From positions 77,578 through 117,844 of IMG/VR virus record IMGVR_UViG_3300042352_001190: a stretch of 40,267 nt of DNA; one strand, written 5' to 3'. The notes beneath the pieces were generated by a model. That model ran no database searches, was not told the DNA's origin, and was given only the letters and a program-made list of their open reading frames with translations. Each line of letters opens with the position of its first letter. Position 1 is the first letter of the stretch. The stretch comes from a virus (taxonomy: Duplodnaviria; Heunggongvirae; Uroviricota; Caudoviricetes). Positions 1 through 39,919 of the stretch are shown in pieces. A program made the translations under genes and the position numbers.

Positions 1-270
1 TTGATTAATTTTTAGATTGGATATACCAAGCTTTTCATGTAATTCTGTATCAAGATGCCACTTTTCTGTAAAGTAGTGATTTACGGCTTTAATTGAAAAC
101 TTGATAAGGTCTTGGCCTTGAAGAGTAATCGACTGTGCAATATCTGTATCGTGAAAATAGAAATATTTGTTACCGAAGGCTCCATAAAACGAGTTAATCA
201 AGATTTTTAGAGCATTTTGCTCAAGATTAAGACGTTTGATCTCTTTGTCTAATTGTTCTTTAGTTTGCAT
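1..270 (-). CDS. gp43: Family B DNA polymerase, C-terminal subunit (gp43B-like), 5' part only; runs off the left edge
   Basis: Manual translation from ATG at 270: MQTKEQLDKEIKRLNLEQNALKILINSFYGAFGNKYFYFHDTDIAQSITLQGQDLIK... contains PolB motif B (KxxxNSxYG) and the downstream A-x-x-I-T-x-x-G; open to the window edge; absent from the ORF track. Confidence 0.93.
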   Translation of the reverse strand, partial: MQTKEQLDKEIKRLNLEQNALKILINSFYGAFGNKYFYFHDTDIAQSITLQGQDLIKFSIKAVNHYFTEKWHLDTELHEKLGISNLKINQ

Positions 271-325
271 ACATAAGTGTTTTACTCGGTTGGTGTTCTT
301 AGTTTAACCTACTAGTATAATACTA

Positions 326-332
326 ATAAATA
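326..332 (+). promoter_or_regulatory. Putative late promoter (ATAAATA, T4 gp55-type TATAAATA variant)
   Basis: Intergenic, 12 nt before ATG at 345. Confidence 0.5.
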
Positions 333-344
333 ATAAAAATTAGC

Positions 345-959
345 ATGGCATTGGTAGCACAAGACAGAACCCTATCTAAAGTTTACGCAAATTATCCCTT
401 TTTGCGAAATTTTCCATTCCAGGACTTTCAAATTGAGGCAGAGGAGCTAAAAAGACCCCAATCTGATGACGGGGAGTTTGCTTCGGCACCTTCTTCTATC
501 ACAAACCCATTTGTTATTAACTTTGTCTATACAAGAGAGAAACAAAAGACTGCAATTTCAGTTTTTGATAGAGAATTGGACTGGTTGAGCACTAGAGCTG
601 ATCTAATTACTGAACTAGATGATATTGTTCATATTATAAATGAGTCCTTGCCATCTGGAGACATTATTAAGAAGAGGGATGCTGTACTTGTGATTGAACA
701 TTGGCTCAAAAAGATCGCAGACGATCGTGCCACCCTAAATTATAGTACATTTAATGATATTTTGATGCGCTTGATCGGCGTAACACAGCTCAAGGAGACT
801 GTTCAATTGATAAATAATATTAATAAGCTATCCTCTGGTGCAAATGTAATAAAAATGGATAAAAAGCAATACGATATTATTATGACGTATTATGATTTCC
901 AAATGATTTATTGCAAATTGGTGCTTGGGATAATTATTGCAGCAAAAATATCGCTTTAA
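345..959 (+). CDS. Hypothetical protein (204 aa)
   Basis: Long ORF after an A-rich leader and ATAAATA; no recognisable motif. Confidence 0.8.
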   Translation: MALVAQDRTLSKVYANYPFLRNFPFQDFQIEAEELKRPQSDDGEFASAPSSITNPFVINFVYTREKQKTAISVFDRELDWLSTRADLITELDDIVHIINESLPSGDIIKKRDAVLVIEHWLKKIADDRATLNYSTFNDILMRLIGVTQLKETVQLINNINKLSSGANVIKMDKKQYDIIMTYYDFQMIYCKLVLGIIIAAKISL

Positions 960-1227: not shown

Positions 1228-2009
1228 TGAAGCATATTAAACTATTTGAAAATTTTAGCAGAGAATATCTAAAGACTAATAATAATTCTTTAGTTTCCTT
1301 TTATGCAGATAAGCTTGGAGATTTTTGGTTAGAAAAAGAATTACTTGAAAAACTAGAACAGTTTGAAGCAAGAGTAGATTCGCTTTTTTCAAATGACTGG
1401 AATCTAAATAGAGGCCGTAATCACTACAATGGAGACTTCTTTGCCCTAAATGTAAAAGTTTATAATTACCCAGATGAAGATGAAGTTCAGGCAAAGGTTG
1501 GCATTGAACTTGATGAGGAACGACTTTCTGATATTTGGTATAGATGGTTGCAAGATCAAGCTGAAATGTTTCAAGAAGATATTGAACAGTCTTACGATTG
1601 GGTTGGTCATGTTGGTTGGGGCGGAAATAGCGGCGGATGGCTACACCTTTCACCAGACAATGGCGCAGATAGATTATTAGAATATGCTGAAGAGACTATT
1701 CAAATGTATTTAGATACTAAAGAATGGTATGAAGAAGATGTTATTGCTGATGTAGCAAAGGCAATCAATAGTCCTGAATGGAAACGCCTTGCTGAACTTG
1801 GTTTGGTTGAAGACGAAGATGCAGTAAAAGAAATTACTGATAAATTAACTGAATCTATTAATTGGTTTAAGGCTGAACTTGCTAAACTCAATCAAATCGA
1901 AGAAGATCTTAAAGATATTCAGCGTCAACACAGATCATTTGAACAAAATGCAAAGAAATATTTTCTAGAATTCTTAGAAGAAGAGATTGCAGATGGCCAC
2001 TTAGGTTAG
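1227..2009 (+). CDS. Acidic protein with N-terminal capsid-targeting-like motif (putative internal head protein)
   Basis: N-terminus MKHIKLFENF resembles the T4 internal-protein CTS (MKTYQEF). Confidence 0.7.
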   Translation: MKHIKLFENFSREYLKTNNNSLVSFYADKLGDFWLEKELLEKLEQFEARVDSLFSNDWNLNRGRNHYNGDFFALNVKVYNYPDEDEVQAKVGIELDEERLSDIWYRWLQDQAEMFQEDIEQSYDWVGHVGWGGNSGGWLHLSPDNGADRLLEYAEETIQMYLDTKEWYEEDVIADVAKAINSPEWKRLAELGLVEDEDAVKEITDKLTESINWFKAELAKLNQIEEDLKDIQRQHRSFEQNAKKYFLEFLEEEIADGHLG

Positions 2010-3568
2010 CCTTTAATAAACTTACTTAAATCATAATTGTGCTTAGACACAATCCATTTTTCCTTTTCATAAATTTTCTCACGAACCTTACCGTGTTTTA
2101 CAATATAACCATTTAGATCGTCAATTAGATCATAAATCGTTACTTTGCTTTTTCCAGCCAATTTACGCATGCCACGACCTACTGCTTGGCGAATAGTAAT
2201 TTCAGACTTATAACTTTCTGCAAAAATAATGCTCTGCACATTTTTTAAGTCAATACCAGTTGCAAAGGTTGCATAGCTTGCAACTAGAGTTACGTTAGAA
2301 CCTGCTTCCATTGCATCTTTATATTCAGCTCGGTCATCTCCGCTTACTTCACCATCAATATAGAATGAGTTTGGATTCCACTCAGAAATTCTCTCTTTAA
2401 TTCGTTGACCGTATTTGTCTTTCACATTAATAAAAAGAATTAGGGTATTTCCACCTAGCTTTTTAACTAGTGATGAAATAAAATCTACACGAGGTTCGTA
2501 TGAAATAATAAAATCCTTTTCCATTTGGAACATATTCTTTCCATAGTCTTCAATACGATGGAATTGACTTTTACCGTGTTCCTGCATATATTTGTAGTTT
2601 TGAATAAAAGGCTCGTTCTCTGGATATTTTAGGGAAAGTATCTTAATAAACACGTCTGGCGAGTGTTTGTTTTCAATTAAGAAACTAGATTTAAGAGTCA
2701 TGCTTAGAGGGCCAATGTACTCTTGGATTTTATAGAAATCAGAAAAATCCTCATCGACTTGAATTGTACCAGAAAGTCCTAACTTATATTCAACATTAGT
2801 TGAAGCTAAGAGAATATCTTTAATAGTATCACCTCTTGAAGTATGACACTCATCTACACAAAGCACAGTAAATTTTTTAAAGAAGTCTCCATCGCGTTTA
2901 GCTAAACTTTGATAAGTTGAGATAACTAGATCCGCCTCTTCAAATTTCTTGTCTGAATATTTGTTCTTACCGCCAACTTCTAAAATATTCCAGTTAATTA
3001 GGCCAGTATGATAGTCCTTTACAAATTTTTCTGCAGTTTGACCAACTAATGAAATATTAGGAACTACAATAAGGGCTTTTTTATCTTTACCATTGATAAT
3101 TCCCTTACGCTTAAGAAAGCTTAAATATAAAAATAGGATTAGAGTTTTACCAGCAGAGGTTGCCAATTCCTGTGCACTAAACTTAAATTTAAGAGCACGG
3201 TATGCAGCTTCCATTTGATAATCATATGGAGTAAGATCGACTCCATCTAATAGGACACTTGCAAATTTATCAAGTTGATCCTTTGTAAATTCAAGATTAA
3301 GTAGAGAATCTAATCCATCTAATTCAATCTCATGACCGTAGATTTGACTAAACTGTTTGATTTGATACCATAAACCGACTCCGATTCGATTTTCGCGATC
3401 TATAAACTTATCATAGCCATCCCAAAGACGACGCTGAAATAGTGGACTAAAGTGATAGCCCTTGGCTCTTTTCTTAAAGAAGTTCTTAAGATCGACTACC
3501 TCTTTCTTAAGATCATTATGTATTAATTGAAAATATCTTTTATCTGGTGTTAACTTAAACTTTAGCAA
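2006..3568 (-). CDS. uvsW: UvsW-like SF2 DNA helicase
   Basis: YQ motif, ATSAGKT (Walker A), DECH, GLSGT, YATFATGID, QAVGRGMRK; next to a UvsY-like gene. Confidence 0.9.
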   Translation of the reverse strand: MLKFKLTPDKRYFQLIHNDLKKEVVDLKNFFKKRAKGYHFSPLFQRRLWDGYDKFIDRENRIGVGLWYQIKQFSQIYGHEIELDGLDSLLNLEFTKDQLDKFASVLLDGVDLTPYDYQMEAAYRALKFKFSAQELATSAGKTLILFLYLSFLKRKGIINGKDKKALIVVPNISLVGQTAEKFVKDYHTGLINWNILEVGGKNKYSDKKFEEADLVISTYQSLAKRDGDFFKKFTVLCVDECHTSRGDTIKDILLASTNVEYKLGLSGTIQVDEDFSDFYKIQEYIGPLSMTLKSSFLIENKHSPDVFIKILSLKYPENEPFIQNYKYMQEHGKSQFHRIEDYGKNMFQMEKDFIISYEPRVDFISSLVKKLGGNTLILFINVKDKYGQRIKERISEWNPNSFYIDGEVSGDDRAEYKDAMEAGSNVTLVASYATFATGIDLKNVQSIIFAESYKSEITIRQAVGRGMRKLAGKSKVTIYDLIDDLNGYIVKHGKVREKIYEKEKWIVSKHNYDLSKFIKG

Positions 3569-4563: not shown

Positions 4564-5094
4564 ATGGAGCAAGTTTTAAATGTCGTAGATTTTGATGAAA
4601 CCTTATTTAGGGTTCCCCCATTTACCCACGCCGGTACTGAGTTTACAAAACCTTACGAGTGGTTTGATAATCCAAAGTCTCTAAACACCAATTTATACAG
4701 ATTACAGCTAATTGAGTCTGTTTTTAATAAACTTGACAAAAACCATACGACTATTATCTTAAGTCACCGGGTTGAGGCAACCAGAAAAGCAATGGCTGCA
4801 GTTTTAGATAAGTTTGGAATTACCAAAACATTTGATCAAATTATCCTTTGCGAGCGTAATACAGATAAACCACAAATGTTACTTGAATATTTGGATAAAG
4901 TTGGTCCTAATTTTGATAAAATCAGAATATTTGAAGACTCTCTTGTTCAAATAGACCGATATGTTAAAAATCCCTATTTAAGTAAGATCACCAATTCAAT
5001 TGAATATTGGTTTGTTGATAAGACCGAATTACTCCAAATTGACGGAAATATTGGTATATTAACAAGAGAAAGAATACAACTTAAATACTCATGA
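4564..5094 (+). CDS. HAD-superfamily phosphatase (PNK 3'-phosphatase-like)
   Basis: Motif I DFDETLF, motif II LSHR, motif III K (DKP), motif IV FEDS. Confidence 0.8.
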   Translation: MEQVLNVVDFDETLFRVPPFTHAGTEFTKPYEWFDNPKSLNTNLYRLQLIESVFNKLDKNHTTIILSHRVEATRKAMAAVLDKFGITKTFDQIILCERNTDKPQMLLEYLDKVGPNFDKIRIFEDSLVQIDRYVKNPYLSKITNSIEYWFVDKTELLQIDGNIGILTRERIQLKYS

Positions 5095-5690
5095 TAATCT
5101 TTATTGAAGGCACACGTCACTCTGGCAAAACCTATTTGCTAAATCAATTAATTAAAAAACACGGTGCTGAATTAAATCTATTTTATTATAAATTTTACCT
5201 AGCTGATGAATATTCAGCAATTGTTAAAGAATGGGATAAATCCGATTCAGGCATTCACTATTTTAGTATGGGTAATATTATGACAATCTTAGATCTACAC
5301 GAACATTTTCCAGAAAAGATTTTTGTATTTGATCGAGCTCATATTACAGCTGCTACTTGGGCAACCATTTGGAATCGATTAGAATTTAATCAAGCCCAAT
5401 CTGAATTATATGGTTTAATTAAACGCCCAGGCTATCAAAATTGCAAAACTGTCATGATTGATGCACCAGATGAATTTAAACAGGACCAGGCTCGTAAAAA
5501 AGATTTATGGGATGGTCTAGTTTCAGCAAAAGAAGAAAAGCTACTTATGACTAAACTTATTGAATCTGCTCCATTTAGATTCAAAGATGGTCGCGAAGGT
5601 AATTCATTTGATCAATTTACAAATAATTTTACGCCAGACTCAGTTGATGAGTTCTGTGATCTAATACAAAAATTGGTTCGGGATAAATAA
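5091..5690 (+). CDS. P-loop kinase, thymidylate/dNMP-kinase-like
   Basis: IFIEGTRHSGKT Walker A and FDRAH (TMK-type DR motif); ATGA overlap with the HAD gene. Confidence 0.7.
   Translation: MIIFIEGTRHSGKTYLLNQLIKKHGAELNLFYYKFYLADEYSAIVKEWDKSDSGIHYFSMGNIMTILDLHEHFPEKIFVFDRAHITAATWATIWNRLEFNQAQSELYGLIKRPGYQNCKTVMIDAPDEFKQDQARKKDLWDGLVSAKEEKLLMTKLIESAPFRFKDGREGNSFDQFTNNFTPDSVDEFCDLIQKLVRDK
5683..5689 (+). promoter_or_regulatory. Putative late promoter (GATAAATA)
   Basis: 22 nt before ATG at 5712. Confidence 0.55.
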
Positions 5691-5711
5691 TCAGAAATAG
5701 GCAACTATAAA

Positions 5712-6212
5712 ATGACAAAACGTATTATTGGAGACTTTAGCCAGTTCCTAAACGAGGCAGAAGAATCAGCACCACTTAAAGGATTACCTTTTCAAGAGCT
5801 TATGGATCAGTTGGTTAAATTAACAGATCTTACATCAGATAGTTTAAGCATCGGAACCCCAGCTGATATCTATGGTCACTCAACTTCATATAAAACAGAT
5901 CTTTCTGAGGTTCAAGCTAGATTAGCTGATGTTGACCACTACTATGCAACAAAAATGAAGCAAGAAGTTAGATTCTTTTGTTGGAATATCAATTGGAAAG
6001 ATTACTCTTCAGGTAGAGAGCTTGAAAAGAAGCTTCCTGAAGGAACTATCCAGGCATATCAAAATATCGATTTAGCAAAACTTATTACCTATTTTGAAGA
6101 AAATCCAGAAGATGCTGGTTTGTTAAAAGGAATTAACCTTAGCGTTTCTTCAAAAGCTGGACAAGAGTTTGCGAAAGATATGGGAGCAGGAAAATACGGA
6201 TCTTTAGACTAA
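5712..6212 (+). CDS. Putative internal head protein (CTS-like N-terminus)
   Basis: MTKRIIGDFSQFLNE|AEE: CTS-like motif followed by an LxE protease-type site; follows a late promoter. Confidence 0.65.
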   Translation: MTKRIIGDFSQFLNEAEESAPLKGLPFQELMDQLVKLTDLTSDSLSIGTPADIYGHSTSYKTDLSEVQARLADVDHYYATKMKQEVRFFCWNINWKDYSSGRELEKKLPEGTIQAYQNIDLAKLITYFEENPEDAGLLKGINLSVSSKAGQEFAKDMGAGKYGSLD

Positions 6213-6228
6213 TAACAATTTAAATTTT

Positions 6229-9123
6229 ATGGCAGGATTAAACCACTTAAAAGACATTTACGAAAAGAAGGGCAAAGAATTTTTAGAAGCTCTTCTTAAT
6301 AAAGAAGTTATCGTTAACGAAAAAATGGACGGTGCATTTTTTGGTGCACAAAGAAACTGCGGAAACTCAGAAGAACCATTTGACTTTTTTAAACGTAATA
6401 CTAAATTAACTGGAGTTGATCGTGTCCTAAGTTCATACTATAATCCAGCACTTAAACATTTTGATGAGTTATCATCAGAAGTAACTGAAAAACTTCCATG
6501 TAACTATCACTTTGGGATGGAATATTTCAGTTCCCCAACTGCTCAATCAATCCAATATGATAGACTACCAAAAAATCACTTAATCTTAAGCTATATCCAT
6601 ATATTGGACGAAGCTGGCGAACAGGCTGAAACTATTCAAGATAAAGCAGATTTGGACAAGTGGGCAGATATTTTAGATATTGAGCGCCCTCCAATTATTT
6701 TTCAAGGAAAACTAACAGACGATCAAAAAGAGAAAATTTTAGATTTTGTCTATACTCCACTTGATGAATTAGTTGGAAAATTTAAGACTGCATCATTTAC
6801 AAAATACATTATTAATGTCTTAAATCCTGAACTTAAAACCTCTTTTTTAAGAGATACTGCAGATAAAGATATTGAAGGAATTGTATTTAGATTTTATGAG
6901 CCAGGCGGAGAAGATTCAGTATTTTTGGCAAAGTTAGTGGACCCAGTTTTCCAAGCAAGAGCAAAAGAAAAGGCTCAAGCTAGAGTTGAGGCACCAAAGA
7001 CTGATGATTATATTTGGATCATGACTGCAGACCTAATGAATTTTATTGAAACCTATTCACAAGCAGATCTTGATGCAATTAAACCAAATGGTACAACATT
7101 TGAAAGACGTTATATTCAAATTATAAATGCAATTTTTAAAGATTTTGTTCAAGAACATGGTAGCAAATATCGCGGACTTGAAATTACAACACCAGAATTC
7201 CTAAATAAGCCAGAATTTGACGTTAACCGAGCATTAATTAGTGATGATATGGTTATCAACCTAATTGATTCTGATAAAACTCTTAAAGAACTCTATCGAG
7301 TTTTCTTAAATACTTTTAGAAAAAAGAATATTAGAGTTAGCTCAACATTTTTCAATAAAACTATGAAAGAAACTCTAAAGTCCCAAATTGCTAAGGTTCA
7401 ACTTGCAGCAGAGGACAAATTAAATGAAGCGTTCTTCCCTACCTTTAATCAATTTTTTGGAACAGATGAAGATGCAACTGATTTTTTCAGTCAATTTCAA
7501 ACTGACCAAAATAAAAAAAAAGATATTGAGGTAGTTGTCTATTTAGACAAATTTCAGCCATTAAGTAAAGAACACGAAAAGGTTGCCTCAAGTATCAAGG
7601 GAAAATACGATGTGCCTTGTTTAATGATTGCATATCACCCAGGTCAAAGAAGTTCAGCCTTTCCAATGTCACCAGAAACTGTTAAAAGTTCAATTGATAG
7701 GTTAACTAAAACTTCAGACTATGTAGTTGGTGGAGGAACAACTGATTCAATCGGAATAGATGAATTAATTAAGTCAGCTGGACAGGGATATTCAATTAAA
7801 GCAATTGCAACAAATTCTGAGTTTGTGCCAGATTTAGTAATCGATCTTAACCGAATTAACAAAAAAGCTCCATATGCAAAAATACCATCTCAACTTAGAG
7901 TGGTGGAGGTTCCTAAAATCGAATTAGAAAGCGATCTTATTAATTCAGTTAAAAACCAAGATTTTGTTCAATATAAAAATCTAACAAGTAAACCTTTACA
8001 TTCAGAGTTTTATAATATGACAAAGGAGATTGAAGAATCCCTTTTAAATGAATCAATATCAGCTGCAGATTTGGATAAAAGAAAAACTGATTTGCTTGAT
8101 TTGATTATTGATGCTCCATACAATGAAGTTCTTTATAAAAAGATTGAAAAGCTTTTAAAGAGAACGCATAATGATTTAACTAAGGATTTGTTTGATATTC
8201 TTAGCAAAACTAAAGGTTATAAAGATTTAGCAAAAACTATTGTTTCAATTGCTGATGATTTAGATCAAGATGATGAACTCCTTGCATATCTAGAAAATCC
8301 AACTGTTACGTTTGAAGATGTTATAAAATCGCCAAATGGTAATCTAAAAACCCTATTTAATACAACTGGCCTTAGCACAGAACTATATGATCAATTATTC
8401 AATTTAATTGGCTCAGTTGGTAGTGTAAATATTGGTCGTGGAGAAATTTTAATGTCAATCCTAATTAAAGATGCAATAAATGCAGATAATAAAACTAAAG
8501 GCGACGTTAAAATTGGATCAGACTCTATTGAAATTAAATCAAGTGGAGATAATTTTAGATTAACTGGTCAAAGTGGTACTGGAATGGGAGCCGATACTGG
8601 AAACTATATTAGAAAAGGTCTATCTGACCTATTTACTGCAGCCAAGCAGGAAGTACCAGAATATTTTGAAAATTCTACGGCATTTGCGCCATCAGCATCA
8701 GCAAATCCACGAAAGGAATATTTTAGCCAAGGAATCACAGCAGCAGTTCAGGCATCAAATAAAGCCGAGGTTGTTGAAATTTTAGCTTCTGGTTTTAATT
8801 TAATTTACAAAAACTATAAAGAAGAACTGGTTTCAGTTTTTAATGCTGCAGTTGCCGAAGATGGCGCATTCAATAATAGAGCATATTTAGATGGTGTTCT
8901 AAAGATTGAATTTGACCGTTATTTACAAGATGGCACATATTTTATGGCTGTAAGTAAGCACACTGGCGACTATGTCTTGATTAATGGAAAGATTACAGAT
9001 GATCAGCTTAAATACTTTAAAGTTGAGCAAGCTAATAATATTAGACCTAAATCAACTTCTTCTGACTCTCTATTGGGAATCGATATTAATATGGATTCTT
9101 TCTCTACAGCTCCTCAAGAATAA
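6229..9123 (+). CDS. 964-aa multidomain protein: ATP-dependent ligase-like nucleotidyltransferase + degenerate cytidylyltransferase-like domain + PD-(D/E)xK nuclease-like domain
   Basis: EKMDG (K32), GMEYF, EGIVFR and AKLVD ligase motifs; VYLDKFQPLSKEH resembles GRFQPxHxGH; GRGE(739)...GD(759)...IE(768)IK(770). Confidence 0.65.
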   Translation: MAGLNHLKDIYEKKGKEFLEALLNKEVIVNEKMDGAFFGAQRNCGNSEEPFDFFKRNTKLTGVDRVLSSYYNPALKHFDELSSEVTEKLPCNYHFGMEYFSSPTAQSIQYDRLPKNHLILSYIHILDEAGEQAETIQDKADLDKWADILDIERPPIIFQGKLTDDQKEKILDFVYTPLDELVGKFKTASFTKYIINVLNPELKTSFLRDTADKDIEGIVFRFYEPGGEDSVFLAKLVDPVFQARAKEKAQARVEAPKTDDYIWIMTADLMNFIETYSQADLDAIKPNGTTFERRYIQIINAIFKDFVQEHGSKYRGLEITTPEFLNKPEFDVNRALISDDMVINLIDSDKTLKELYRVFLNTFRKKNIRVSSTFFNKTMKETLKSQIAKVQLAAEDKLNEAFFPTFNQFFGTDEDATDFFSQFQTDQNKKKDIEVVVYLDKFQPLSKEHEKVASSIKGKYDVPCLMIAYHPGQRSSAFPMSPETVKSSIDRLTKTSDYVVGGGTTDSIGIDELIKSAGQGYSIKAIATNSEFVPDLVIDLNRINKKAPYAKIPSQLRVVEVPKIELESDLINSVKNQDFVQYKNLTSKPLHSEFYNMTKEIEESLLNESISAADLDKRKTDLLDLIIDAPYNEVLYKKIEKLLKRTHNDLTKDLFDILSKTKGYKDLAKTIVSIADDLDQDDELLAYLENPTVTFEDVIKSPNGNLKTLFNTTGLSTELYDQLFNLIGSVGSVNIGRGEILMSILIKDAINADNKTKGDVKIGSDSIEIKSSGDNFRLTGQSGTGMGADTGNYIRKGLSDLFTAAKQEVPEYFENSTAFAPSASANPRKEYFSQGITAAVQASNKAEVVEILASGFNLIYKNYKEELVSVFNAAVAEDGAFNNRAYLDGVLKIEFDRYLQDGTYFMAVSKHTGDYVLINGKITDDQLKYFKVEQANNIRPKSTSSDSLLGIDINMDSFSTAPQE

Positions 9124-9139
9124 GTCTAGACTCGCTCGA

Positions 9140-9146
9140 ATAAATA
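9140..9146 (+). promoter_or_regulatory. Putative late promoter (ATAAATA)
   Basis: 19 nt before the GTG at 9166. Confidence 0.55.
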
Positions 9147-9165
9147 TCTTAAAAGGGCGAAACTT

Positions 9166-9345
9166 GTGAATTCTTCTCAGAAAAACTATAAAGATTATAT
9201 CCAGGGTAAAGCTAGATTGGAAAATGCAATCATACAGCACCCAAGCGGAGAAAATCCAATTATGGATCTTTTAAAGAAGGAAACCAATAGAACCTTCTGG
9301 GTTAAACCATTCGCCGATTGGAAAAAACAAACTACAAAGAAATGA
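9166..9345 (+). CDS. Small 59-aa protein not in the ORF track
   Basis: GTG start with AAGGG upstream; MNSSQKNYKDYIQGKARLENAIIQHPSGENPIMDLLKKETNRTFWVKPFADWKKQTTKK; ATGA overlap with the next gene; fills the gap. Confidence 0.7.
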   Translation: MNSSQKNYKDYIQGKARLENAIIQHPSGENPIMDLLKKETNRTFWVKPFADWKKQTTKK

Positions 9346-11374: not shown

Positions 11375-11375
11375 A

Positions 11376-29211: not shown

Positions 29212-29228
29212 AATATAGATAACTTTTT

Positions 29229-30550: not shown

Positions 30551-30559
30551 AGTTCTATA

Positions 30560-32224: not shown

Positions 32225-32730
32225 TCTTCTTTAGGTTTAGGTAAGTTAATTATTTGATCTGGTAAAATTTCAGTCGTTGCAACCACTTGCCAAGTTTTTA
32301 TAGATTCATTCCATTCAACATCGGCATTTGGAAAGTCTGCTACTGTATACAGAGAAACAAACCCAGTCAAAAAGTCCATCCAATGGAACTCATTTAATTT
32401 TCCAATAACTTCTTCACTTTGAGTAAGATTTTCTAAATCTTCTTGAGAAACAAGTTCACCCGACTCTAAAAGTTCTTTTCTTTTAGCAGAGACTATTTCC
32501 TCTAATGTAGAGTTTAGTTTTTGAATTTTTACTGGATTGGGTTTAAGACAGTTTGCAAATGCACGAGATATTTTAAATATCATTGCACCCTCTACTAGAT
32601 TTACGTCATGGGCACAAACTGTTTCAATCGGTTCCCCTTGAAGAATTCGACTTGTTGCAATCGCACGAGGAAAACCGTCGGTTGTATTTAGTTCAAATTT
32701 AACCTTATTTGAAAGTCCTATATTAAGCAT
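32221..32730 (-). CDS. Degenerate SET-domain-like protein
   Basis: AIATSRILQGEPIE and GFVSLYTVADFPNA...VATTEILPDQII align with SET N- and C-terminal motifs, but NH is replaced by TV; ATG 32730 preferred over 32766. Confidence 0.55.
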   Translation of the reverse strand: MLNIGLSNKVKFELNTTDGFPRAIATSRILQGEPIETVCAHDVNLVEGAMIFKISRAFANCLKPNPVKIQKLNSTLEEIVSAKRKELLESGELVSQEDLENLTQSEEVIGKLNEFHWMDFLTGFVSLYTVADFPNADVEWNESIKTWQVVATTEILPDQIINLPKPKEE

Positions 32731-33844
32731 AATCTTTCTCTTGTTTTGCTCTCTCCTGTATTTCAAAGAATTTAGTAACTAGATCCTTTTTCATACTTTG
32801 AGTGTATTGTTTTGAATTTAAATATGTTTTAAAGATCTCAAATGCATCAAATTTATCTGAACTTGATAGATCTAGAGAAATTTCAGTTGGTGTAGTATCA
32901 GACGAATCGCTAGTGTATGTAAAAAATTCAACCTTTCTATACTTAACTTGTTCTAAAACAGTTAAGAACTGGCTGATTGGAATCTTATTGGATAGATTAA
33001 TTTCAATCATAACATCAACAAAATTATTAGTCAAAAGAGAAGTTAACTGATTAAGATTCATATCTAATAATTCGCAGATATCGTATTTGACATAATTTGG
33101 TGATGTCTGGTTCTCTATAAAGGTTTCTTTAAAGTTATCTTTAGCATCTATTATGTAATAACCCTTAGTGTTCCCACGATCACCCCTGTCCATCTGGTAA
33201 GGAGTTCCAGTATACAATATATTATCTTGTTCTTGCCTATGATGGATGTGACCAGAGTAAACCCTATCATACTGGGATAGTGCAGTAATCTCTAATCCAT
33301 GCTCAACTTTAGTCCATCTATTAAACTTAAGGCCTTTAATATCTGCATGGCAAACAATACGCTTACACATACCTGCATAATCTGCAACATAACTACCTAA
33401 AGTTTTGGTGTCTTCAACCCAAGGAAGCATTAACCAATTTTCAGTATCGTTTATAGTTAAGATTTCTGGGCTCTCAAACACATGAATATTTTCAGAAAGG
33501 TGTTTTAGGTGTCTAACTGAATTAACTTGGTTAGAATCTTTATAATAAACATCATGGTTTCCTAAAATAATGAAAATACCTCTTTTAAATACCTTAGAAA
33601 GTTTTTCAAAAATTTCCATTGAATCGTTTTGAATACGAACATTAATAGATTCTCTGGAATGAAAAATATCTCCTTCTAAAATAAGGATATCTGTTTCTGG
33701 ATTAAACCCATTTTCTTGAGCAGTCTTAGGCAAAACCTCCAAAAGAAATTCTTTTTGGATATCTGCCCACTCTACTGAATTATTTCTAATTCCTAAGTGT
33801 AAATCTCCTACTAAAAATATTTTGTTTATATTGTTTAACTTCAT
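32723..33844 (-). CDS. gp47: gp47 / SbcD-Mre11-like nuclease
   Basis: GDLHLG, GDIFH, GNHD, CHADI, GHIH metallophosphoesterase motifs. Confidence 0.93.
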   Translation of the reverse strand: MKLNNINKIFLVGDLHLGIRNNSVEWADIQKEFLLEVLPKTAQENGFNPETDILILEGDIFHSRESINVRIQNDSMEIFEKLSKVFKRGIFIILGNHDVYYKDSNQVNSVRHLKHLSENIHVFESPEILTINDTENWLMLPWVEDTKTLGSYVADYAGMCKRIVCHADIKGLKFNRWTKVEHGLEITALSQYDRVYSGHIHHRQEQDNILYTGTPYQMDRGDRGNTKGYYIIDAKDNFKETFIENQTSPNYVKYDICELLDMNLNQLTSLLTNNFVDVMIEINLSNKIPISQFLTVLEQVKYRKVEFFTYTSDSSDTTPTEISLDLSSSDKFDAFEIFKTYLNSKQYTQSMKKDLVTKFFEIQERAKQEKDYA

Positions 33845-34515
33845 TAAAATAGTTTTTTAAATCGAACCTTACCGTCTAGTATTCCAAATTTATTATTAAG
33901 TTCTAATAGGAGAACTTCTTTGTGCTCATATTCAAGAGATTCAAATAATCTTTTAAAATCCATTTGAGAAATCATTGAAACAAAATCTAATACATCAATT
34001 GGTCCAATAAACGTAGTTTTATTATTTTCTCTAACTAGAGTACATAATCTAGAAAAAGCAAGATTGATTTCAGGTTTTGTAAACTTTCTGCCCTCAAGTG
34101 AAATTCCCATTAGGTTAATTAGAACTTCATCATTATTTGCAATAGTATTTAGATCCCTTTCAATAATAACTTTATCCATGTACTTATCATATGAAGCCCC
34201 ATCTAATAGGTGGCTATCAGTATGACCAGGATCCAACCGAATTCCAGTGTTATGATACATTTCATCGCTTAAACCCTCTCCACTATTCCAAGAGTTATTA
34301 AAGATCTTATCTTCTCTCTTTAGTTTTAAGTGTTGTTGGTATCGAGCCTCATCTTCATCATCAATTGACTCTTGATCGATATGACCAAGCTCATCAGAAT
34401 CTTCATCATCTCCTTCAACTTGATCCAATCCATCAAAATCATCTCCATCTAAAGCTGACCACTCATCGCCTTCGTTGATGAATAGATCCTCTTCTTTAGT
34501 TTTTTTCTTCCACAT
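33844..34515 (-). CDS. Hypothetical protein with acidic disordered N-terminus
   Basis: TAATG-coupled to gp47; D/E-rich first 60 aa. Confidence 0.75.
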   Translation of the reverse strand: MWKKKTKEEDLFINEGDEWSALDGDDFDGLDQVEGDDEDSDELGHIDQESIDDEDEARYQQHLKLKREDKIFNNSWNSGEGLSDEMYHNTGIRLDPGHTDSHLLDGASYDKYMDKVIIERDLNTIANNDEVLINLMGISLEGRKFTKPEINLAFSRLCTLVRENNKTTFIGPIDVLDFVSMISQMDFKRLFESLEYEHKEVLLLELNNKFGILDGKVRFKKLF

Positions 34516-34530
34516 AGTATTGTAGTTTTT

Positions 34531-36018
34531 TTATAAATCTCCTAAAATATCTTCATGTTCACCAAACGTTTTGATACTAGGAGCAACTGTCAACTGTGGT
34601 TTAACTTGGACATTTGCATATTGTTGACGCAAATCATCTTCAATTGAAGAAATATCGTCGTCATCAGAGTAGTATTCGCTTGCTGGATCAGTTTCTTCTA
34701 CAAGTCTAGAAAAATCATAGAACATTCGATACATTTTAAAGCTTTCTGTGTAGCCTTCATCACGGTTAGCAATAACCTTGATTTTAATTCTTTTTTCCAT
34801 TGGACCTCTCATCAATCCATAGAGAGAGTCAACTGTGTGAACCAGACCAAATGATTCAGCAATATCTGACATTCCAATATCTTGATCATCAACCGCATCA
34901 CGTTTAATTTGGGTTGCAGTAATAATAGTCCATTCATTTCGTTGAGCAACTGCACGCAATTCTTCAGAAATTACTTTAATCTTTTCATAAGTATTTCCTT
35001 GCTCACGCATAGGTCTCATCAAGTTAATATAGTCAACCACTACAACTTGTAATCGTTTGCCTGTACTCTCTTGAACTTTTAAGAAATAGTTTTCGATATC
35101 AACTGCAGTTGCACTACCTGTTGCAAACTCCTTAACCCAAAGTTCTCCTGGCTGAGATCCACTTTGCTTAAACTGTTCGATCTTTGCTTCAATTAATTGA
35201 GTTCGATCAGTTGAGGTAATTTCATTGTATTGATTATATGGGATATTTAAGATGTTTGATCCTAAACGTTTCATGTATTTAGTATCAGCTAATTCAAGTG
35301 TTGCAACGCCAGTTTGACAACCTGACATAAATGCTCGAGCTGCAATATTTGAAAGAACCATCGACTTACCTACTTTAGGACGACCTTGGAAAACAACTAA
35401 TGTTTTTGGGTTCCATCCACCGCCTAGGGTTTTATCAAAGAATGGAAATCCAGTTGGAGTACCAGTTTTAGAAACCTGAACGTGATCGACTGCATTAAAG
35501 AAGTTTAGACCTGATTCAGCATTACTAAAAGATACATTTAGGTTTGTATTTAATTTAGTTCTTACCTGATCCGTAATAATATTAACGTTCTCTGGACTAA
35601 TTTCAGTAGTCTTTAAGAAAGATAAAATATCAATAATTGAAGAGTTAAGATTCTTAATTAAGATAAAAGACTTTGTGTATTTAGTTAAAAACTCGTAATT
35701 GTATTCTCCTAGATTTACACCAAGCAAAGTATTAAAACTATCATCTGAAATTTCATAACCAGTTAAGTTAAGCATCTCACGAATTTCAGTTTTAGATGGA
35801 ACTTTATGATATTCCTTATAGTAGTTTTTTACAACTTTAAAGATATTACCAAGATCATCGTTATTAAAGTATTGAGTCTTCATTTTAGGAATTACTTCCC
35901 TTATGTCTAGCGCCTCCACATTCTTTGGACGAATCAGGGTCTCATTATTATCATCCATTAGAATAAAGTTAAGAATAACTTTCTCTAGTAACTCAATGTT
36001 TTCTTTAAAGTCTATCAT
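34531..36018 (-). CDS. gp41: gp41 / DnaB-like replicative helicase
   Basis: TGFPFFDKTLGGG, GRPKVGKS, TLEL, VVDYINLM, TATQ, AESFG. Confidence 0.92.
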   Translation of the reverse strand: MIDFKENIELLEKVILNFILMDDNNETLIRPKNVEALDIREVIPKMKTQYFNNDDLGNIFKVVKNYYKEYHKVPSKTEIREMLNLTGYEISDDSFNTLLGVNLGEYNYEFLTKYTKSFILIKNLNSSIIDILSFLKTTEISPENVNIITDQVRTKLNTNLNVSFSNAESGLNFFNAVDHVQVSKTGTPTGFPFFDKTLGGGWNPKTLVVFQGRPKVGKSMVLSNIAARAFMSGCQTGVATLELADTKYMKRLGSNILNIPYNQYNEITSTDRTQLIEAKIEQFKQSGSQPGELWVKEFATGSATAVDIENYFLKVQESTGKRLQVVVVDYINLMRPMREQGNTYEKIKVISEELRAVAQRNEWTIITATQIKRDAVDDQDIGMSDIAESFGLVHTVDSLYGLMRGPMEKRIKIKVIANRDEGYTESFKMYRMFYDFSRLVEETDPASEYYSDDDDISSIEDDLRQQYANVQVKPQLTVAPSIKTFGEHEDILGDL

Positions 36019-36023
36019 ATTTT

Positions 36024-36371
36024 TTAGTTATACAGTTCGTTAAATACTGCTTGGTTAATATACAAAAATTCTCCTTTTTTAAGCAGAGTTTCTGCATCCA
36101 TTAATTTTTTAATTACAATTCTGAGTTTATCCTTAAATCCAGGAGTTACCTCATTTTCATTAAATACGTACTTAAGAGTTTTTGCAGAAAATTTCAATTC
36201 AGAAGGATTAAATTCTTTATTTTTTATTTCGCAAACCTTAATAATATATTGAATAATATCAACTACGAAATCGGTTTCCGTAGGATAACTTGGTAGCACC
36301 CTATGTAAACCTAATTCGTACTTAATTGGTAACTCTGGCTTAAGTTTATAATTAATCTTCTGATCCATCAA
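36024..36371 (-). CDS. Hypothetical protein (115 aa) in the T4 gene-40 position
   Basis: Between uvsX and 41 and overlapping the uvsX 3' end; sequence not recognisable as gp40. Confidence 0.65.
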   Translation of the reverse strand: MMDQKINYKLKPELPIKYELGLHRVLPSYPTETDFVVDIIQYIIKVCEIKNKEFNPSELKFSAKTLKYVFNENEVTPGFKDKLRIVIKKLMDAETLLKKGEFLYINQAVFNELYN

Positions 36372-37545
36372 ATTCAGTCATTTCGTTTAATTCATCTGTT
36401 TCCATATCATCAATACCATCCTGAGTTTCAGGGAACTTAAAGGTCGGTTTGATAATTTTTTCATCCAATTCTTTTAGGACCTCATCAGTAAAGAGTCTTG
36501 ATGAGAAGAATTCCTTAACTGGAACAGCATCACCGTTATGACGAACGATATAAGATTTGCCGAGCTTTTTAGGATAGAAATAAACCTGCTCTCCATTTAA
36601 CTGAAATGGCGATAGTATTTCCTGCTCGTCAGCTTTCATTTTTTCAAATTCCTTTTGTGTTACAATAACACCACGACCAACTCCGCAAGTTTCCCAACTT
36701 ACATATTGTTCCAATCCAACAAATGGATTCATACCTTTATGGAATGAAATATGGAATTCAATATCAAGAGGGCGAGCTAAACGATTCTTTTTGGTTTTAC
36801 TACGAACAATAATACCAGTAGTCGTTTTGTTTTCATCACGAAGAGTTCCTTTGCTTAACATTAAGATAATTGAAGCAGAGAATTCTGGACCACCTCCACC
36901 TGACATTCCTTTTGGAGTGTATTGGTCCATTGATGCATAGGTGTGGTTTGTAAAAATAAATGGAACTTTGTGATTTGAAAGGTCTAGCGTTAGAGATTTA
37001 AATAAGGATCTCATCTCTTTTGCACGAAGACCCATATCCGCTGCATTTTTACCCTTGTCCATGTCAGTTTTACTTTTATCAGTATCTAACATTCCAACAG
37101 AGTCAACGAATAGTGCAATTTTAAGACCTGGATTTTCTTTGATTGTATCAATTAGGTCATTAACGAAGAATTTTACTTCACTAATAAGACCCATACGCAA
37201 GTACTTAAGTTTAGTTAAGTCTACACCAAATTTTACATAGTCTGAAGAGTCAATTGCACCCTCAGTATCAATGTAAAATACCATGTAATCTTTTTTCTGT
37301 AACTCACGAACAGCGTTTAAACATAAGAAGGTTTTACCTGCTCCTGAATCTCCAGCGATTCCAATACTTCTTGTGTTTGGATATCCACCAAATAGAGAGC
37401 CTGACATTTGGGCGTTTAGTAGATAATTTCCGGTTGGAATATACTCCTCAATATCGGAGAAGCCACGAATTTCAATTTTAGATTTTACTTTCTTTTCAAG
37501 TAAATCATTAAACTTTGCGAATGCATCTAATGTAGATTTTGCCAT
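36352..37545 (-). CDS. uvsX: UvsX / RecA-like recombinase
   Basis: TGNYLLNAQMSG, GDSGAGKT, YIDTEG, VDSVG, GGGG, KNR; acidic tail. Confidence 0.93.
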   Translation of the reverse strand: MAKSTLDAFAKFNDLLEKKVKSKIEIRGFSDIEEYIPTGNYLLNAQMSGSLFGGYPNTRSIGIAGDSGAGKTFLCLNAVRELQKKDYMVFYIDTEGAIDSSDYVKFGVDLTKLKYLRMGLISEVKFFVNDLIDTIKENPGLKIALFVDSVGMLDTDKSKTDMDKGKNAADMGLRAKEMRSLFKSLTLDLSNHKVPFIFTNHTYASMDQYTPKGMSGGGGPEFSASIILMLSKGTLRDENKTTTGIIVRSKTKKNRLARPLDIEFHISFHKGMNPFVGLEQYVSWETCGVGRGVIVTQKEFEKMKADEQEILSPFQLNGEQVYFYPKKLGKSYIVRHNGDAVPVKEFFSSRLFTDEVLKELDEKIIKPTFKFPETQDGIDDMETDELNEMTEFDGSED

Positions 37546-37599
37546 AAATATTTAATCCTTTTGTTATACCCTCTTTTACACAGCAGGGGATAAAGGATC

Positions 37600-37950
37600 T
37601 TAGGCAAAGTATGATATAGTTAGGAAGCTAGCCGCAAGTAATTTTGAGTTTGAGTATTCGCCTTGCATTACTTTATAGAAAGGAACTCTGGTTAAATCTG
37701 AGTCGTGTTTTAGCCCGCTAATATTAACAGCGAAACAAATATCCTTATCTATTTTTCCTAATTTAAATATTCTAGATTGTTCTAAGTCTTCTACCCCAAG
37801 CTCTTGATACATGCGTTTGATTGCAGAAAAGCTTGATGCATCTTTAGCATGATCGATTTTTATTGTAACTGGTTCACCATCTGGTGTACAGTAAATTGCT
37901 CGTAATTTTTCTGAGTCAGAAACTTCAATTGGTAAAATAATTAGCTCCAC
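37600..37950 (-). CDS. Hypothetical protein, degenerate Nudix-like fold
   Basis: ASSFSAIKRMYQELGV aligns with the Nudix box, with most catalytic Glu lost. Confidence 0.55.
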   Translation of the reverse strand: MELIILPIEVSDSEKLRAIYCTPDGEPVTIKIDHAKDASSFSAIKRMYQELGVEDLEQSRIFKLGKIDKDICFAVNISGLKHDSDLTRVPFYKVMQGEYSNSKLLAASFLTISYFA

Positions 37951-38540
37951 TATTTAGAATCAAGTTTTTTCAGCAAGGCATCTTTAATATGATCTGCTGT
38001 TATTTGATTATTTATATGGTTTGCTAATTCTGTTAAAAATTCTGATTTGTTCTGTGAGCTCTTGTACATCATCTTCAATAGGTTAATTGAAGGAAGATTT
38101 ACTCTTAAATTTAAGTTTAGGAGAGACTCTTCAGTTGCAAACATCTCAAAAATGCCTGCAGATTTTGGATTTGGTTGAATTACTACTTGAGCCGGAGCAG
38201 CCTGTGGCGTTTCTTGAACTGGAGCAGGTTTAGTTTGATCTATAACTGGGCCTCTAATTGACATACATTCAGCTTTAGTTAAAGGATCTTGTCCATCCAT
38301 AATTGCCATTAGTTTAGTATTAAGTTCATCTAAACTTACACTAGAACCATCTGCTAATTTAACAGCCATTAGGCCACCTCTACTAAATACATCAACTACT
38401 CTAGTAACTGTTGAAATTTTAGTATCATCTGGGGTATTTACCCATTGGTAATCTTTGCCCATAATGAAATCTCTAGTTTGGGCAAGTGCATCAATATCGT
38501 ACATATATTTGTTTATTTTGTTTTTTAACCATTTTATCAT
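37950..38540 (-). CDS. Hypothetical protein (196 aa)
   Basis: TAATG-coupled to the PolB N-half; Pro/Gln linker. Confidence 0.75.
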   Translation of the reverse strand: MIKWLKNKINKYMYDIDALAQTRDFIMGKDYQWVNTPDDTKISTVTRVVDVFSRGGLMAVKLADGSSVSLDELNTKLMAIMDGQDPLTKAECMSIRGPVIDQTKPAPVQETPQAAPAQVVIQPNPKSAGIFEMFATEESLLNLNLRVNLPSINLLKMMYKSSQNKSEFLTELANHINNQITADHIKDALLKKLDSK

Positions 38541-39919
38541 TAGTTTGCTGCTTTTTTCGCTGCTTGTTTTAATTCGGTAATATGACCTTTAATATTCATA
38601 CGGCGGTCATACATGTTCTTTAAGATAACTCGAGCGGCTGAATCTTTTTTCTTAGTAAAAAGAGTACCATTTTTTGTATAGACTTCATCTTCTTTAAGAA
38701 CATGGCCGGGTTTCATTTTACCTAGATAGGTATCTGGGGAAATATTAAATTGGATCTGAACGTTAGGGTACATTGAAGAGAAGTCAAAGCATGAAACATA
38801 CTTATGGTGACCTGGAATTGGCTTACTTACATAAGCACCTTCATATGTTACCTGTTCAGCCAAATCGCGTTTATCTGAAGCCATTTTCTTGCCATCACGT
38901 AAAAAGTGGCGACACATTAGGGATTCAGTAATAAACACTGCGCTAAAGACTTTTGATACATCAACTTGTGCAGTTTTAGAAATTGCAAACGCAACTTCAA
39001 GAAGACTTAATTTGTCTTCGATTAATTTAACAAGCATAACGTCAATTGCGTTATACTTTACGAAGTTTTCAACATCTTGTTGAGCTTCCATCATTGAACC
39101 ATAATCATGATGTAATTTACTTACTCCAAGTACAAGTTGAGAAATATAGTCGAGTTTGTAATTTTCAACAACTTTAATTGGCTTAAGGTTTGTAAATACT
39201 TCAAGGTAATCGAGCAAACCTAAGTGGACTGGTGATTGACCTTTGCCGATTAACTTGTCACAAACCATAGATTCCATAGGTTTGATATTAAGGCGTTTAC
39301 AACGATTAATTAAGTATTTCCAGTCGAATTCAATTACGTTCCAGCCAGTAATAAAAGGAAGTTTAGGAAGTATTCTATGAAAAAAGGTTGCCATTAAGTC
39401 TTCTTCTTTTTCAAAGAACATATACTTAATAGTAAATACTTGACCTTGTGCACTTAAATACTCATTGATTTCAGATTCCATTTTAGAAATAGCTGCATCA
39501 TCGAGCTTTTTCATAGTAGACAAAATGTAGGTCACATTATCTGGACCACAAAATGAAATAAGGTTTACTGGCATTGCAGCTTTAGCTGGATCAGGAAACT
39601 CGTTTGAAGTTAACTGAATCTCGATATCGAGAAAGTATTTCTTAGGATTATGATCAGAATAGATTTGAGCAAGCTCTTCTTCAGAAAAACGGGTCTGAAT
39701 CAACTCTTCAATTCGGAATCGACTTAACCATTTACTTTTGCTTTTATCAACAAACTTATTATCCCAATTTCGATACTCTGAGGGGCGACCTGTGAGCTTC
39801 CAATTAAATTGATCAGCATCATGAATATGCTTTACTGCGTATGCAACATTACCGGCTTCATCATAATATGAAACTACTAGTTTAGAATCGTCTTGTTTAA
39901 ATTCAGAGCTTATTATCAT
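38540..39919 (-). CDS. gp43: Family B DNA polymerase, N-terminal subunit (gp43A-like: 3'-5' exonuclease plus motif A)
   Basis: FLDIE (ExoI), GWNVIEFDWKY (ExoII), YNAID (ExoIII), YEGAYV, DFSSMYP (motif A), NISPDT; stops after the first finger helix; no motif B or C. Confidence 0.95.
   Translation of the reverse strand: MIISSEFKQDDSKLVVSYYDEAGNVAYAVKHIHDADQFNWKLTGRPSEYRNWDNKFVDKSKSKWLSRFRIEELIQTRFSEEELAQIYSDHNPKKYFLDIEIQLTSNEFPDPAKAAMPVNLISFCGPDNVTYILSTMKKLDDAAISKMESEINEYLSAQGQVFTIKYMFFEKEEDLMATFFHRILPKLPFITGWNVIEFDWKYLINRCKRLNIKPMESMVCDKLIGKGQSPVHLGLLDYLEVFTNLKPIKVVENYKLDYISQLVLGVSKLHHDYGSMMEAQQDVENFVKYNAIDVMLVKLIEDKLSLLEVAFAISKTAQVDVSKVFSAVFITESLMCRHFLRDGKKMASDKRDLAEQVTYEGAYVSKPIPGHHKYVSCFDFSSMYPNVQIQFNISPDTYLGKMKPGHVLKEDEVYTKNGTLFTKKKDSAARVILKNMYDRRMNIKGHITELKQAAKKAAN

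Follow-up and report, generated by a model that had tools for sequence, protein, structure and literature searches.

The window, i.e. the whole 40,267-nucleotide stretch of DNA analysed here, constitutes the final 40 kb of a 117.8-kb IMG/VR contig from an uncultured freshwater jumbo phage. Open reading frame (ORF) and profile analysis revealed that its family-B DNA polymerase (PolB) is encoded by two separate genes, referred to as the N-half and the C-half, which are cut at the tip of the fingers, are located 38.3 kb apart on the minus strand and together encode 935 residues. The features are as follows (coordinates in the window, strand, description):

1..270, minus strand: PolB C-half, first 90 codons, second finger helix with motif B; the remainder lies outside the window, to the left
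271..344, no strand: divergent intergenic region of 74 nt upstream of the C-half (sequence inspection)
2006..3568, minus strand: UvsW-type helicase, within the interval between the halves
4564..28779, plus strand: opposite-strand, mainly structural block separating the halves
19947-20750, plus strand: baseplate hub, in the structural block
21642-23738, plus strand: prohead protease, in the structural block
23756-25288, plus strand: gp23-like major head protein, in the structural block
28810..37950, minus strand: replication/recombination/nucleotide block downstream of the N-half, comprising the next six genes
29229-29675, minus strand: dCMP deaminase
29672-30550, minus strand: thymidylate-synthase family
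30560-32224, minus strand: Rad50/gp46-like
32723-33844, minus strand: Mre11/gp47-like
34531-36018, minus strand: DnaB/gp41-like helicase
36352-37545, minus strand: UvsX/RecA
37950..38540, minus strand: gene of 196 aa, no assigned function, its ATG overlapping the N-half stop (TAATG)
38540..39919, minus strand: PolB N-half, 459 aa, N-terminal domain, 3'-5' exonuclease, part of the palm and first finger helix
39949..40266, minus strand: dUTPase, cut by the contig end, 29 nt upstream of the N-half

The N-half has the composition given in the first-pass annotation, with Exo I (DxE), Exo II and Exo III (YxxxD) followed by motif A (DFSSMYP) in the first part of the palm. It matches the exonuclease domain PF03104 (52 bits, cut-off 23) and positions 30-147 of the PF00136 profile, and the alignment with RB69 gp43 covers residues 100-490 (E 3e-33). 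The stop comes 11 residues past the last RB69-alignable residue (490), corresponding approximately to RB69 501, inside the first finger helix. Residues D98, E100, D199, Y289, D293, D379 and Y384 are invariant across 31 relatives.

The minus-strand ORF running from 270 to 1 begins, as had been noted, at the second finger helix with motif B. In the parent contig the full C-half is 476 aa (L001:340-1770:-, with the ORF start at window position 270), and extending the sequence leftward (G000:C1:76417-77577) adds the rest of the palm with motif C (as YTDTDS) and KKxY, and the thumb. It matches PF00136 positions 144-237 and T4 gp43 residues 540-753 (E 1e-7), with C-half residue 5 pairing with T4 residue 540, such that the C-half starts at approximately RB69 539. 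Invariant across 19 relatives are K22, N26, Y29, G30, D100, T101, D102, K174, K175 and Y177. Taken together, the two genes hold the exonuclease motifs, motifs A, B and C and KKxY, with similarity over both halves, as in the T4/RB69 gp43-type of family B. The proposal of a PolB split at the fingers into two genes about 38 kb apart with no intein is hence borne out by the ORFs, the Pfam domains and the gap.

The profile search detected no PolB on the 117.8-kb contig other than the two halves. Since the genome to which the window belongs is 46% complete, the absence of a second polymerase is deduced from complete relatives with 62-63% identity: in five relatives scored 100% complete by CheckV no other polymerase was recognisable, PF00136 matched only the two halves, PolA and PolIII-alpha were absent, and an intact full-length PolB was found in none.

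Two genes could still yield one polypeptide if the halves were joined after transcription or translation, by RNA trans-splicing or by a cryptic split intein, and split inteins are in use among the relatives (in the LR756500 C-half at motif C and in ribonucleotide reductase). In the present case, however, the N-half continues for just 11 residues beyond its RB69-alignable end, and the C-half has 21 ahead of its motif-B lysine. These residues are all predicted finger helix touching the partner and are without a terminal Cys/Ser/Thr-Asn signature, which agrees with the earlier remark that the junctions lack split-intein residues and leaves no room for intein blocks. Moreover, Rfam and tRNA scans of the window gave no match, with no Rfam family, group I and II introns included, at gathering score. 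The contigs from RNA libraries are without joints or loose ends at the C-half start. An intron-interrupted gene is likewise rejected, in view of the Rfam result and of the halves not being co-transcribable. We therefore regard such joining as very improbable.

The N-half is located only 348 nt from the contig end, which, together with the incompleteness of the contig, might suggest that the split arose in assembly, or that the gene is a decaying pseudogene and the phage depends on another polymerase. This is contradicted by independent assemblies of other samples. The 38.3-kb gap recurs in a 95%-identical contig from a different sample, four complete relatives of approximately 270 kb have a 43.2-kb gap that is consistent across circular permutations, and in 15 further contigs the N-half lies upstream of the C-half on the same strand, with gaps of 11-67 kb; misassembly is thereby excluded. 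The layout (same strand, N-half upstream, gaps of 11-67 kb) is accordingly repeated in 20 independent contigs, and a series of lake metagenome runs contain the sequence. In addition, neither half shows any change in its catalytic residues among relatives down to approximately 30% identity, and the complete relatives have no other polymerase. An artefact or pseudogene appears to us even less credible than joining of the halves.

Outside these 20 contigs, the identical cut point is found in Lak-A2 and in huge phages (460-640 kb); the break point is shared by LR745206, LR756500 and Lak-A2, and in LR745206, LR756502, LR756504 and Lak-A2 the halves are 100-280 kb apart on opposite strands. N-halves ending in the first finger helix account for 111 of the 138 near-full-length proteins among the best 150 representatives, and judging from the more than 100 protein clusters formed by N-halves of this type the split is less singular than the first-pass annotation assumed. 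Unsplit, adjacent, nearby and distant states are all represented among the relatives, and gap sizes are graded (1-7 kb, 11 kb, 36-67 kb and 100-280 kb), consistent with the idea that the halves have drifted apart. The length of the N-half tail co-varies with that of the C-half lead (Spearman 0.62, n=20, phylogeny not corrected for), and in the tree with T4-like outgroups, which relates to the question of splits versus re-fusions, the outgroup branches are long. The C-half was not found on the two fragmentary contigs G010 and G019, which are 47% and 38% complete, respectively.

As to its origin, the break is presumably old and at a site that is recurrently broken in this polymerase family, and insertion of a homing endonuclease is the probable cause. 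Neither half is flanked by an endonuclease gene in the window, and we infer this origin from the relatives: in LR756500 a homing-endonuclease-like gene is located directly 3' of the N-half, a split intein accompanied by a free-standing endonuclease gene interrupts the C-half a second time, at motif C, and the ribonucleotide reductase is broken likewise. Later genome rearrangement would have left the halves of the window phage in separate transcription units 38 kb apart.

Our data make it highly probable that the sole replicase of this phage is a T4 gp43-type family-B enzyme made of two polypeptides that are predicted to assemble non-covalently. In this enzyme, the exonuclease, the first finger helix and the palm portion carrying motif A would come from the N-half, and the second finger helix (motif B), the palm parts with motif C and KKxY, and the thumb from the C-half. 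Co-folding gave an ipSAE of 0.83 vs 0.00 for the best of three controls, a mark that 51 of 78 solved complexes but just two of 108 mismatched pairs attain; the runs share at least 94% of contacts with a partner pLDDT of at least 84. As single-chain gp43 structures have been solved, this result may simply reproduce them, and it is a sign of resemblance to gp43 and not of binding. The first-pass annotation envisaged a heterodimer held by the two finger helices, and these are in contact in the co-fold, but most of the interface is formed by the palm, which is divided between the chains (N-half 359-395 vs C-half 97-109 and 152-175), and the finger helices add a second contact. The active enzyme would then form through completion of the shared palm and an antiparallel hairpin of the two finger helices, without the approximately 37-residue fingertip loop that is present in RB69. 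Contigs from RNA libraries of four studies map to the C-half ORF, although such libraries can carry DNA, and the N-half is seen in RNA runs only as a word share of 0.32 (X17); shares in the other RNA runs are small (0.04-0.18) and were given zero weight. As a sign of expression this is weak.

The genes between the halves had been summarised as a capsid/baseplate block. Such genes are present, but the interval also includes those for UvsX, the gp41-like helicase, gp46/gp47, thymidylate synthase, dCMP deaminase and UvsW. The 196-aa gene following the N-half has no match in Pfam or PHROG; in relatives, a gene with a similar N-terminus comes after the N-half, and the order dUTPase then N-half is also found in the huge phage LR756500. 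Because approximately 24 kb of opposite-strand genes intervene, the halves belong to separate transcription units, from which the separate promoters proposed earlier follow. Judging from its position, the 74-nt region (271..344) must house a putative promoter of the C-half's own; it contains a TTATTTATT(T/A)GTA-like element, found on inspection to be common to nine relatives. A sigma-70 promoter and terminator scan of positions 1-1000 gave no excess over shuffled expectation. A common promoter for both halves was considered and dropped, since the loose pattern T[TA][GA]GTA... upstream of both has 15 matches on the 118-kb contig vs a shuffle mean of 16. The narrower DGTATATTA is enriched on that contig (8 vs 2.05 in shuffles) and also precedes structural genes.

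The first-pass annotation added the idea, which supplements the heterodimer model and does not replace it, that the ratio of exonuclease to polymerase could be regulated independently. The halves would then differ in timing or dosage, and free N-half would work by itself as a 3'-5' exonuclease. The separate transcription units forced by the opposite-strand genes would allow this, as would the positions of the N-half in a dUTPase/UvsX/helicase block and of the C-half beside its own divergent intergenic region, and an N-terminal fragment of T4 gp43 has been solved as a stand-alone exonuclease fragment (1noy). Yet the N-half includes half of the palm, which according to the predicted structure would be exposed if the partner were absent, and all 20 contigs keep the halves in one order and on one strand, with no hint of regulatory divergence; we consider separate tuning unlikely. 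Slightly more doubtful still is that the uncoupling has been adaptive, and not neutral drift, across a very large clade of jumbo and mega phages. If it were, the halves would be timed or dosed separately, maybe with free nuclease early and polymerase later, or co-infecting phages might reassort them as interchangeable modules, and the fingertip would be a recurrently used, selectable break point and not a scar.

For the two-polypeptide replicase, the implication is that an essential enzyme can stay functional very long as two genes without genomic linkage, and split PolB, far from being peculiar to one phage, is the common condition in a large lineage of mostly uncultured phages to which Lak and other megaphages belong. 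As PolB is a favourite phage marker for phylogeny, completeness and annotation, half-length genes in these phages ought not to be annotated as truncated or as pseudogenes, and tree building requires the N-half and the C-half to be joined first. The lineage also provides natural material on how a family-B polymerase is assembled from parts, and it shows homing endonucleases and inteins fracturing essential genes.

Among known split polymerases, the closest parallel is the bicistronic gp43 (43A/43B) of Aeromonas phages 25, 31, 44RR and 65 and Acinetobacter phage 133 (Petrov et al. 2006, 2010, via PMC3061061 and PMC2988022). In these phages the subunits are made independently and homing-endonuclease or other insertions are implicated; 43A and 43B of phage 25 co-purify and are active (PMC2988022). 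The gp43 family, the fingertip break between the two finger helices and the absence of an intein are common to both. In contrast, the 43A/43B cistrons are 2 bp to 3 kb apart in one locus, while here 38.3 kb and an opposite-strand structural module lie between the halves, and those of related huge phages are up to 281 kb apart on opposite strands. Nor is the window phage close kin of the 43A/43B phages, its nearest named relatives being cyanophage gp43 proteins (27-31% identity). In the chimallivirus PhiKZ, DNAP-N (gp82) and DNAP-C (gp50) come from distant genes and form a stable, interdigitated 1:1 complex (cryo-EM preprint, PMC13648687), and there too a family-B phage replicase has motifs A and C on different chains, the complex being a predicted one in our case. 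In PhiKZ, however, the polymerase is interrupted within a large palm insertion specific to its lineage, the fingers are retained entire in DNAP-C, and the enzyme is much larger, at 1369 residues; a PhiKZ-type split was ruled out given the fingertip break and 935 residues, which leave no extra domain. The split PolB of Methanothermobacter thermautotrophicus, with genes 85 kb apart (Kelman et al. 1999, as cited in PMC3061061), likewise has two distant genes and a break without an intein, but it is archaeal and broken in the palm, approximately 83 residues C-terminal to the fingertip position. Pfu polymerase retains wild-type kinetics when it is engineered as two fragments, with the cut close to the finger tip, and these are made separately and then reconstituted (PMC3061061); that split is artificial and archaeal, with the fragments expressed from one bicistronic clone or mixed in vitro. 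In fractured genes (Dassa et al. 2009, PMC2677866), a split intein occurs together with a homing endonuclease that is free-standing, an arrangement that LR756500 matches at polymerase motif C and in its ribonucleotide reductase. The fingertip junction, in the window and in LR756500, is without intein halves, and this identity was rejected for it on account of the 11 and 21 flanking residues being finger helix. In the literature searched, the coverage of which is incomplete, we found no paper that reports, for jumbo, mega or Lak phages, a PolB cut at the finger tip with its halves far apart; the split polymerase described in such phages by Iyer et al. 2021 is PolIII-alpha and not PolB, and the Jug-phage paper has polymerase genes split by endonucleases and lacks the distant-halves layout. 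The finger-tip split with distant halves is thus confirmed as real and widespread, and it joins two features each already known, i.e. fingertip splits (T4-like phages) and uncoupled halves (Methanothermobacter and PhiKZ).

The family-B DNA polymerase of this phage is encoded by two separate genes on the minus strand, an N-half with the exonuclease and motif A and a C-half with motifs B and C and the thumb, which confirms the first-pass annotation of a polymerase split at the fingers with its parts about 38 kb apart. The two genes and those around them are, in the order in which the minus strand is read:

Upstream of the N-half: dUTPase
38540-39919, minus strand: PolB N-half, 459 aa; PF03104 (family-B exonuclease domain), 52 bits; PF00136, positions 30-147 of 453
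37950-38540, minus strand, directly after the N-half: gene of 196 aa matching neither Pfam nor PHROG, its ATG overlapping the N-half stop (TAATG)
After the 196-aa gene, minus strand: UvsX/RecA; DnaB/gp41-like helicase; Mre11/gp47-like; Rad50/gp46-like; thymidylate-synthase family; dCMP deaminase
Block after the minus-strand replication genes, plus strand: baseplate hub protein; prohead protease; gp23-like major head protein
Last in the interval between the halves: UvsW-type helicase
From 270 and out of the window (L001:340-1770 in the parent contig), minus strand: PolB C-half, 476 aa; PF00136 from position 144

Motif C, predicted to lie beyond position 1, is present in the parent contig as YTDTDS, and the C-half also carries motif B (KILINSFYG) and KKKY. 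Compared with solved structures, the N-half matches residues 100-490 of RB69 gp43 (E 3e-33), RB69 residue 490 being opposite N-half residue 448 with the stop 11 residues beyond, and T4 gp43 residue 540 and RB69 residue 559 are opposite C-half residues 5 and 21, respectively. These alignment ends place the break at the tip of the fingers. Approximately 37 residues of the RB69 fingertip (about 502-538) have no counterpart in either half, and the halves sum to 935 residues, near the 898-903 of T4/RB69 gp43. When the contig was searched for PF00136 and PF03104, only these two genes matched; neither a third PolB open reading frame nor an intact full-length PolB was found in it.

The window is the final 40,267 nt (G000:C1:77578-117844) of a 117,844-nt IMG/VR virus contig, which is classed as linear and has a GC content of about 34% and a CheckV completeness of 46%, corresponding to a whole genome of about 250-270 kb. 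The population appears to be a persistent freshwater one: at least half of the sequence words of the N-half (38540-39919), and 80-100% of the sampled words, were found in each of 16 lake-water/freshwater metagenome runs (14 study codes, released 2017-2024).

Nothing points to misassembly between the halves, and the layout is repeated in independent assemblies. A contig of 216.8 kb from a different sample (95% protein identity) places the N-half (140057-141430) and the C-half (179705-181132) on one strand with a gap of 38.3 kb. Four genomes of about 270 kb (62-63% identity; all rated 100% complete, with direct terminal repeats in one of them) carry a single N-half and a single C-half each, which share a strand and are 43.2 kb apart, a distance that in two of the four is seen only after reading the linear record as a circular permutation. 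Both halves also occur in 15 more contigs (115-374 kb); in every one they share a strand and the N-half is the upstream partner, with gaps of 11.0, 11.7, 36.1, 37.8, 45-48 (six), 52-54 (three) and 66.9 kb. At 57 loci the sequence continues for 8 kb or more downstream of the N-half, and in only four of them does the C-half lie within 10 kb (1.1, 4.2, 4.8 and 7.1 kb). In GenBank the closest phages are huge and uncultured. In LR745206 (635 kb), an N-half of 513 aa and a C-half of 474 aa have an identical break point, are separated by 101 kb and lie on opposite strands, the halves in LR756502 and LR756504 are 132 and 281 kb apart, and in Prevotella phage Lak-A2 (541 kb) the N-half ends in the first finger helix with the C-half 221 kb off on the other strand.

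When the N-half was searched exhaustively with HMMER, 191 representatives of 50%-identity clusters matched at E up to 1e-30. Of the top 150, 138 cover most of the query; 111 of the 138 are N-halves of 447-631 aa (mostly 450-520) ending in the first finger helix, and 27 run more than 150 residues beyond the N-half match. In a large uncultured lineage, a split PolB with distant halves is the norm. PF00136 matches are limited to the two halves in five complete relatives and no family-A or PolIII-alpha polymerase was detectable, so the split enzyme is their only recognisable replicase. The enzyme is read as essential and selected for: the catalytic residues are invariant, both in 31 N-halves down to about 28% identity (Exo I D98/E100, Exo II D199, Exo III Y289/D293, motif A D379/Y384) and in 19 C-halves (motif B K22, N26, Y29, G30; motif C D100, T101, D102; K174, K175, Y177).

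How two such genes give one enzyme was considered at the protein and RNA levels. The N-half tail is 11 residues long and the C-half has 21 ahead of its motif-B lysine, lengths too short for intein halves, and all of these residues are predicted by co-folding to be finger helix touching the partner chain, which bears out the earlier reading of a junction without an intein. No Rfam family reached the gathering score in the window, and hence there is no group I or II intron; a common transcript is impossible because approximately 24 kb of opposite-strand genes separate the halves.

Co-folding of the full-length halves gave a predicted complex with ipSAE 0.83 in three of three runs (best of three controls 0.00; at least 94% contact agreement, partner pLDDT at least 84), passing a mark that, in the calibration of the tool, 51 of 78 solved complexes and two of 108 mismatched pairs also pass. 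Because single-chain gp43 structures are solved, this pass may merely echo them, and it shows gp43 likeness, not binding of the two halves. The first-pass annotation had the heterodimer held by the two finger helices. These do touch in the model (N 429-458 against C 2-32), but not alone, since the palm divided between the chains is also predicted to join them (N 359-395 against C 97-109 and 152-175). As a weak hint independent of the co-fold, the N-half tail, measured from the conserved Arg, and the C-half lead, measured up to motif B, covary in length (Spearman 0.62, 20 genomes, kinship ignored and start codons set by eye). Published split polymerases support assembly of the halves as plausible: 43A and 43B, the bicistronic gp43 halves of Aeromonas phage 25, co-purify and are active (PMC2988022), and Pfu polymerase cut close to the finger tip was like wild type when its fragments, purified separately, were put back together (PMC3061061). 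Overall, we regard the putative two-polypeptide heterodimer as well supported by comparative evidence; independent regulation of exonuclease and polymerase is speculation. Weak evidence for expression comes from RNA libraries, which can contain DNA: contigs from four studies fall on the C-half (397-1827 of L003, a stretch around this gene) at 90-100% identity, and 32% of the N-half sequence words occur in one RNA run.

The interval had been described as a capsid/baseplate block, and the baseplate hub, prohead protease and gp23-like head protein are indeed there; the description is incomplete, as replication, recombination and nucleotide genes and UvsW lie there too. The 196-aa gene is translationally coupled to the N-half via TAATG, and in most relatives the gene after the N-half has a similar N-terminal YDIDAL/YDIE motif; it could encode a polymerase accessory protein. 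The mainly structural block also encodes a 964-aa protein (6229-9123, plus strand) without a PHROG match, which carries an RNA-ligase domain at its N-terminus (PF09414, 31 bits). Directly downstream of the C-half, and just outside the window on the left, is a gene (L001:2-334, minus strand; G000:C1:76079-76411) whose product opens with a CPFCGDSK…C…C zinc-ribbon that recalls the zinc finger of a primase, with no Pfam match for the first 111 residues.

The sequence GGTATATTA occurs four times in the window (5053-5061, 20755-20763 and 4310-4318, plus strand; 39938-39946, minus strand), three copies being 15-38 nt upstream of open reading frame starts (5091, 20770 and the N-half at 39919), and the degenerate DGTATATTA occurs eight times against 2.05 expected; this may be a promoter or leader element. 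A TTATTTATT(T/A)GTA(n)ATTAAAC-like element, 30-50 nt upstream of the C-half start, is conserved in nine related genomes (window 271-344 and matching regions of G002, G006-G008, G014, G021 and G022); the window copy is apparently interrupted by about 12 nt.

With respect to the origin of the break, LR756500 (462 kb) has a 647-aa homing-endonuclease-like gene directly after the N-half, and the C-half is 10.5 kb downstream with no intein at the finger junction. This C-half is broken again at motif C by a split intein (N-intein after YIDTD, C-intein ending ...VHN before SCYLAF), with a related free-standing 567-aa endonuclease-like gene between the pieces, and the ribonucleotide reductase of this phage is broken likewise (a 614-aa piece with an N-intein at its end, a 376-aa endonuclease-like gene, and a 390-aa piece opening with a C-intein). 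Both are textbook examples of 'fractured genes':

1784-5184 and 9360-13531 of L072 (LR756500.1 247000-265000), minus strand: intein-broken genes of LR756500

Five relatives (P0064, P0113, P0117, P0143 and P0148) with unsplit fingers terminate after motif C in an intein-like tail (…DHSLIVFR…), and are fractured there, not at the fingertip. Read from end to end, the unsplit relative P0025 (869 aa) aligns first with the N-half of LR756500 and then with its C-half, which puts that break at about P0025 residue 493-496. Trees built from the N-half region intermix split and unsplit forms, with at least 13 state changes forced by well-supported branches, and an AU test rejects a single split clade (log-likelihood difference 1205, p 0.00018, for a group defined after a first tree), indicating that the fingertip site was broken or re-fused many times; split/unsplit sister pairs share 38-61% identity (seven of eight 45-61%). 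The clade of the window (support 96) has nine representatives, all of them split; here and in the 19 related contigs the halves keep their order and strand, which points to one old fingertip break, after which the interval between the halves would have grown.

Finally, fingertip-split gp43 is established for the T4-related phages 25, 31, 44RR, 65 and 133, with cistrons 2 bp to 3 kb apart, according to PMC3061061 (citing Petrov et al. 2006, 2010), which also places the halves of Methanothermobacter PolB 85 kb apart with the break in the palm; PhiKZ gp82/gp50 are genomically distant halves broken in a lineage-specific palm insertion and form a 1:1 complex by cryo-EM (PMC13648687). Within the limits of the searchable literature, no published description of a fingertip break with distant halves in such phages was found. 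The window thus has the break site of the former phages but with halves 38.3 kb apart, and the distant layout of Methanothermobacter and PhiKZ but with the break at the fingertip, not the palm, and so combines two features each known separately.
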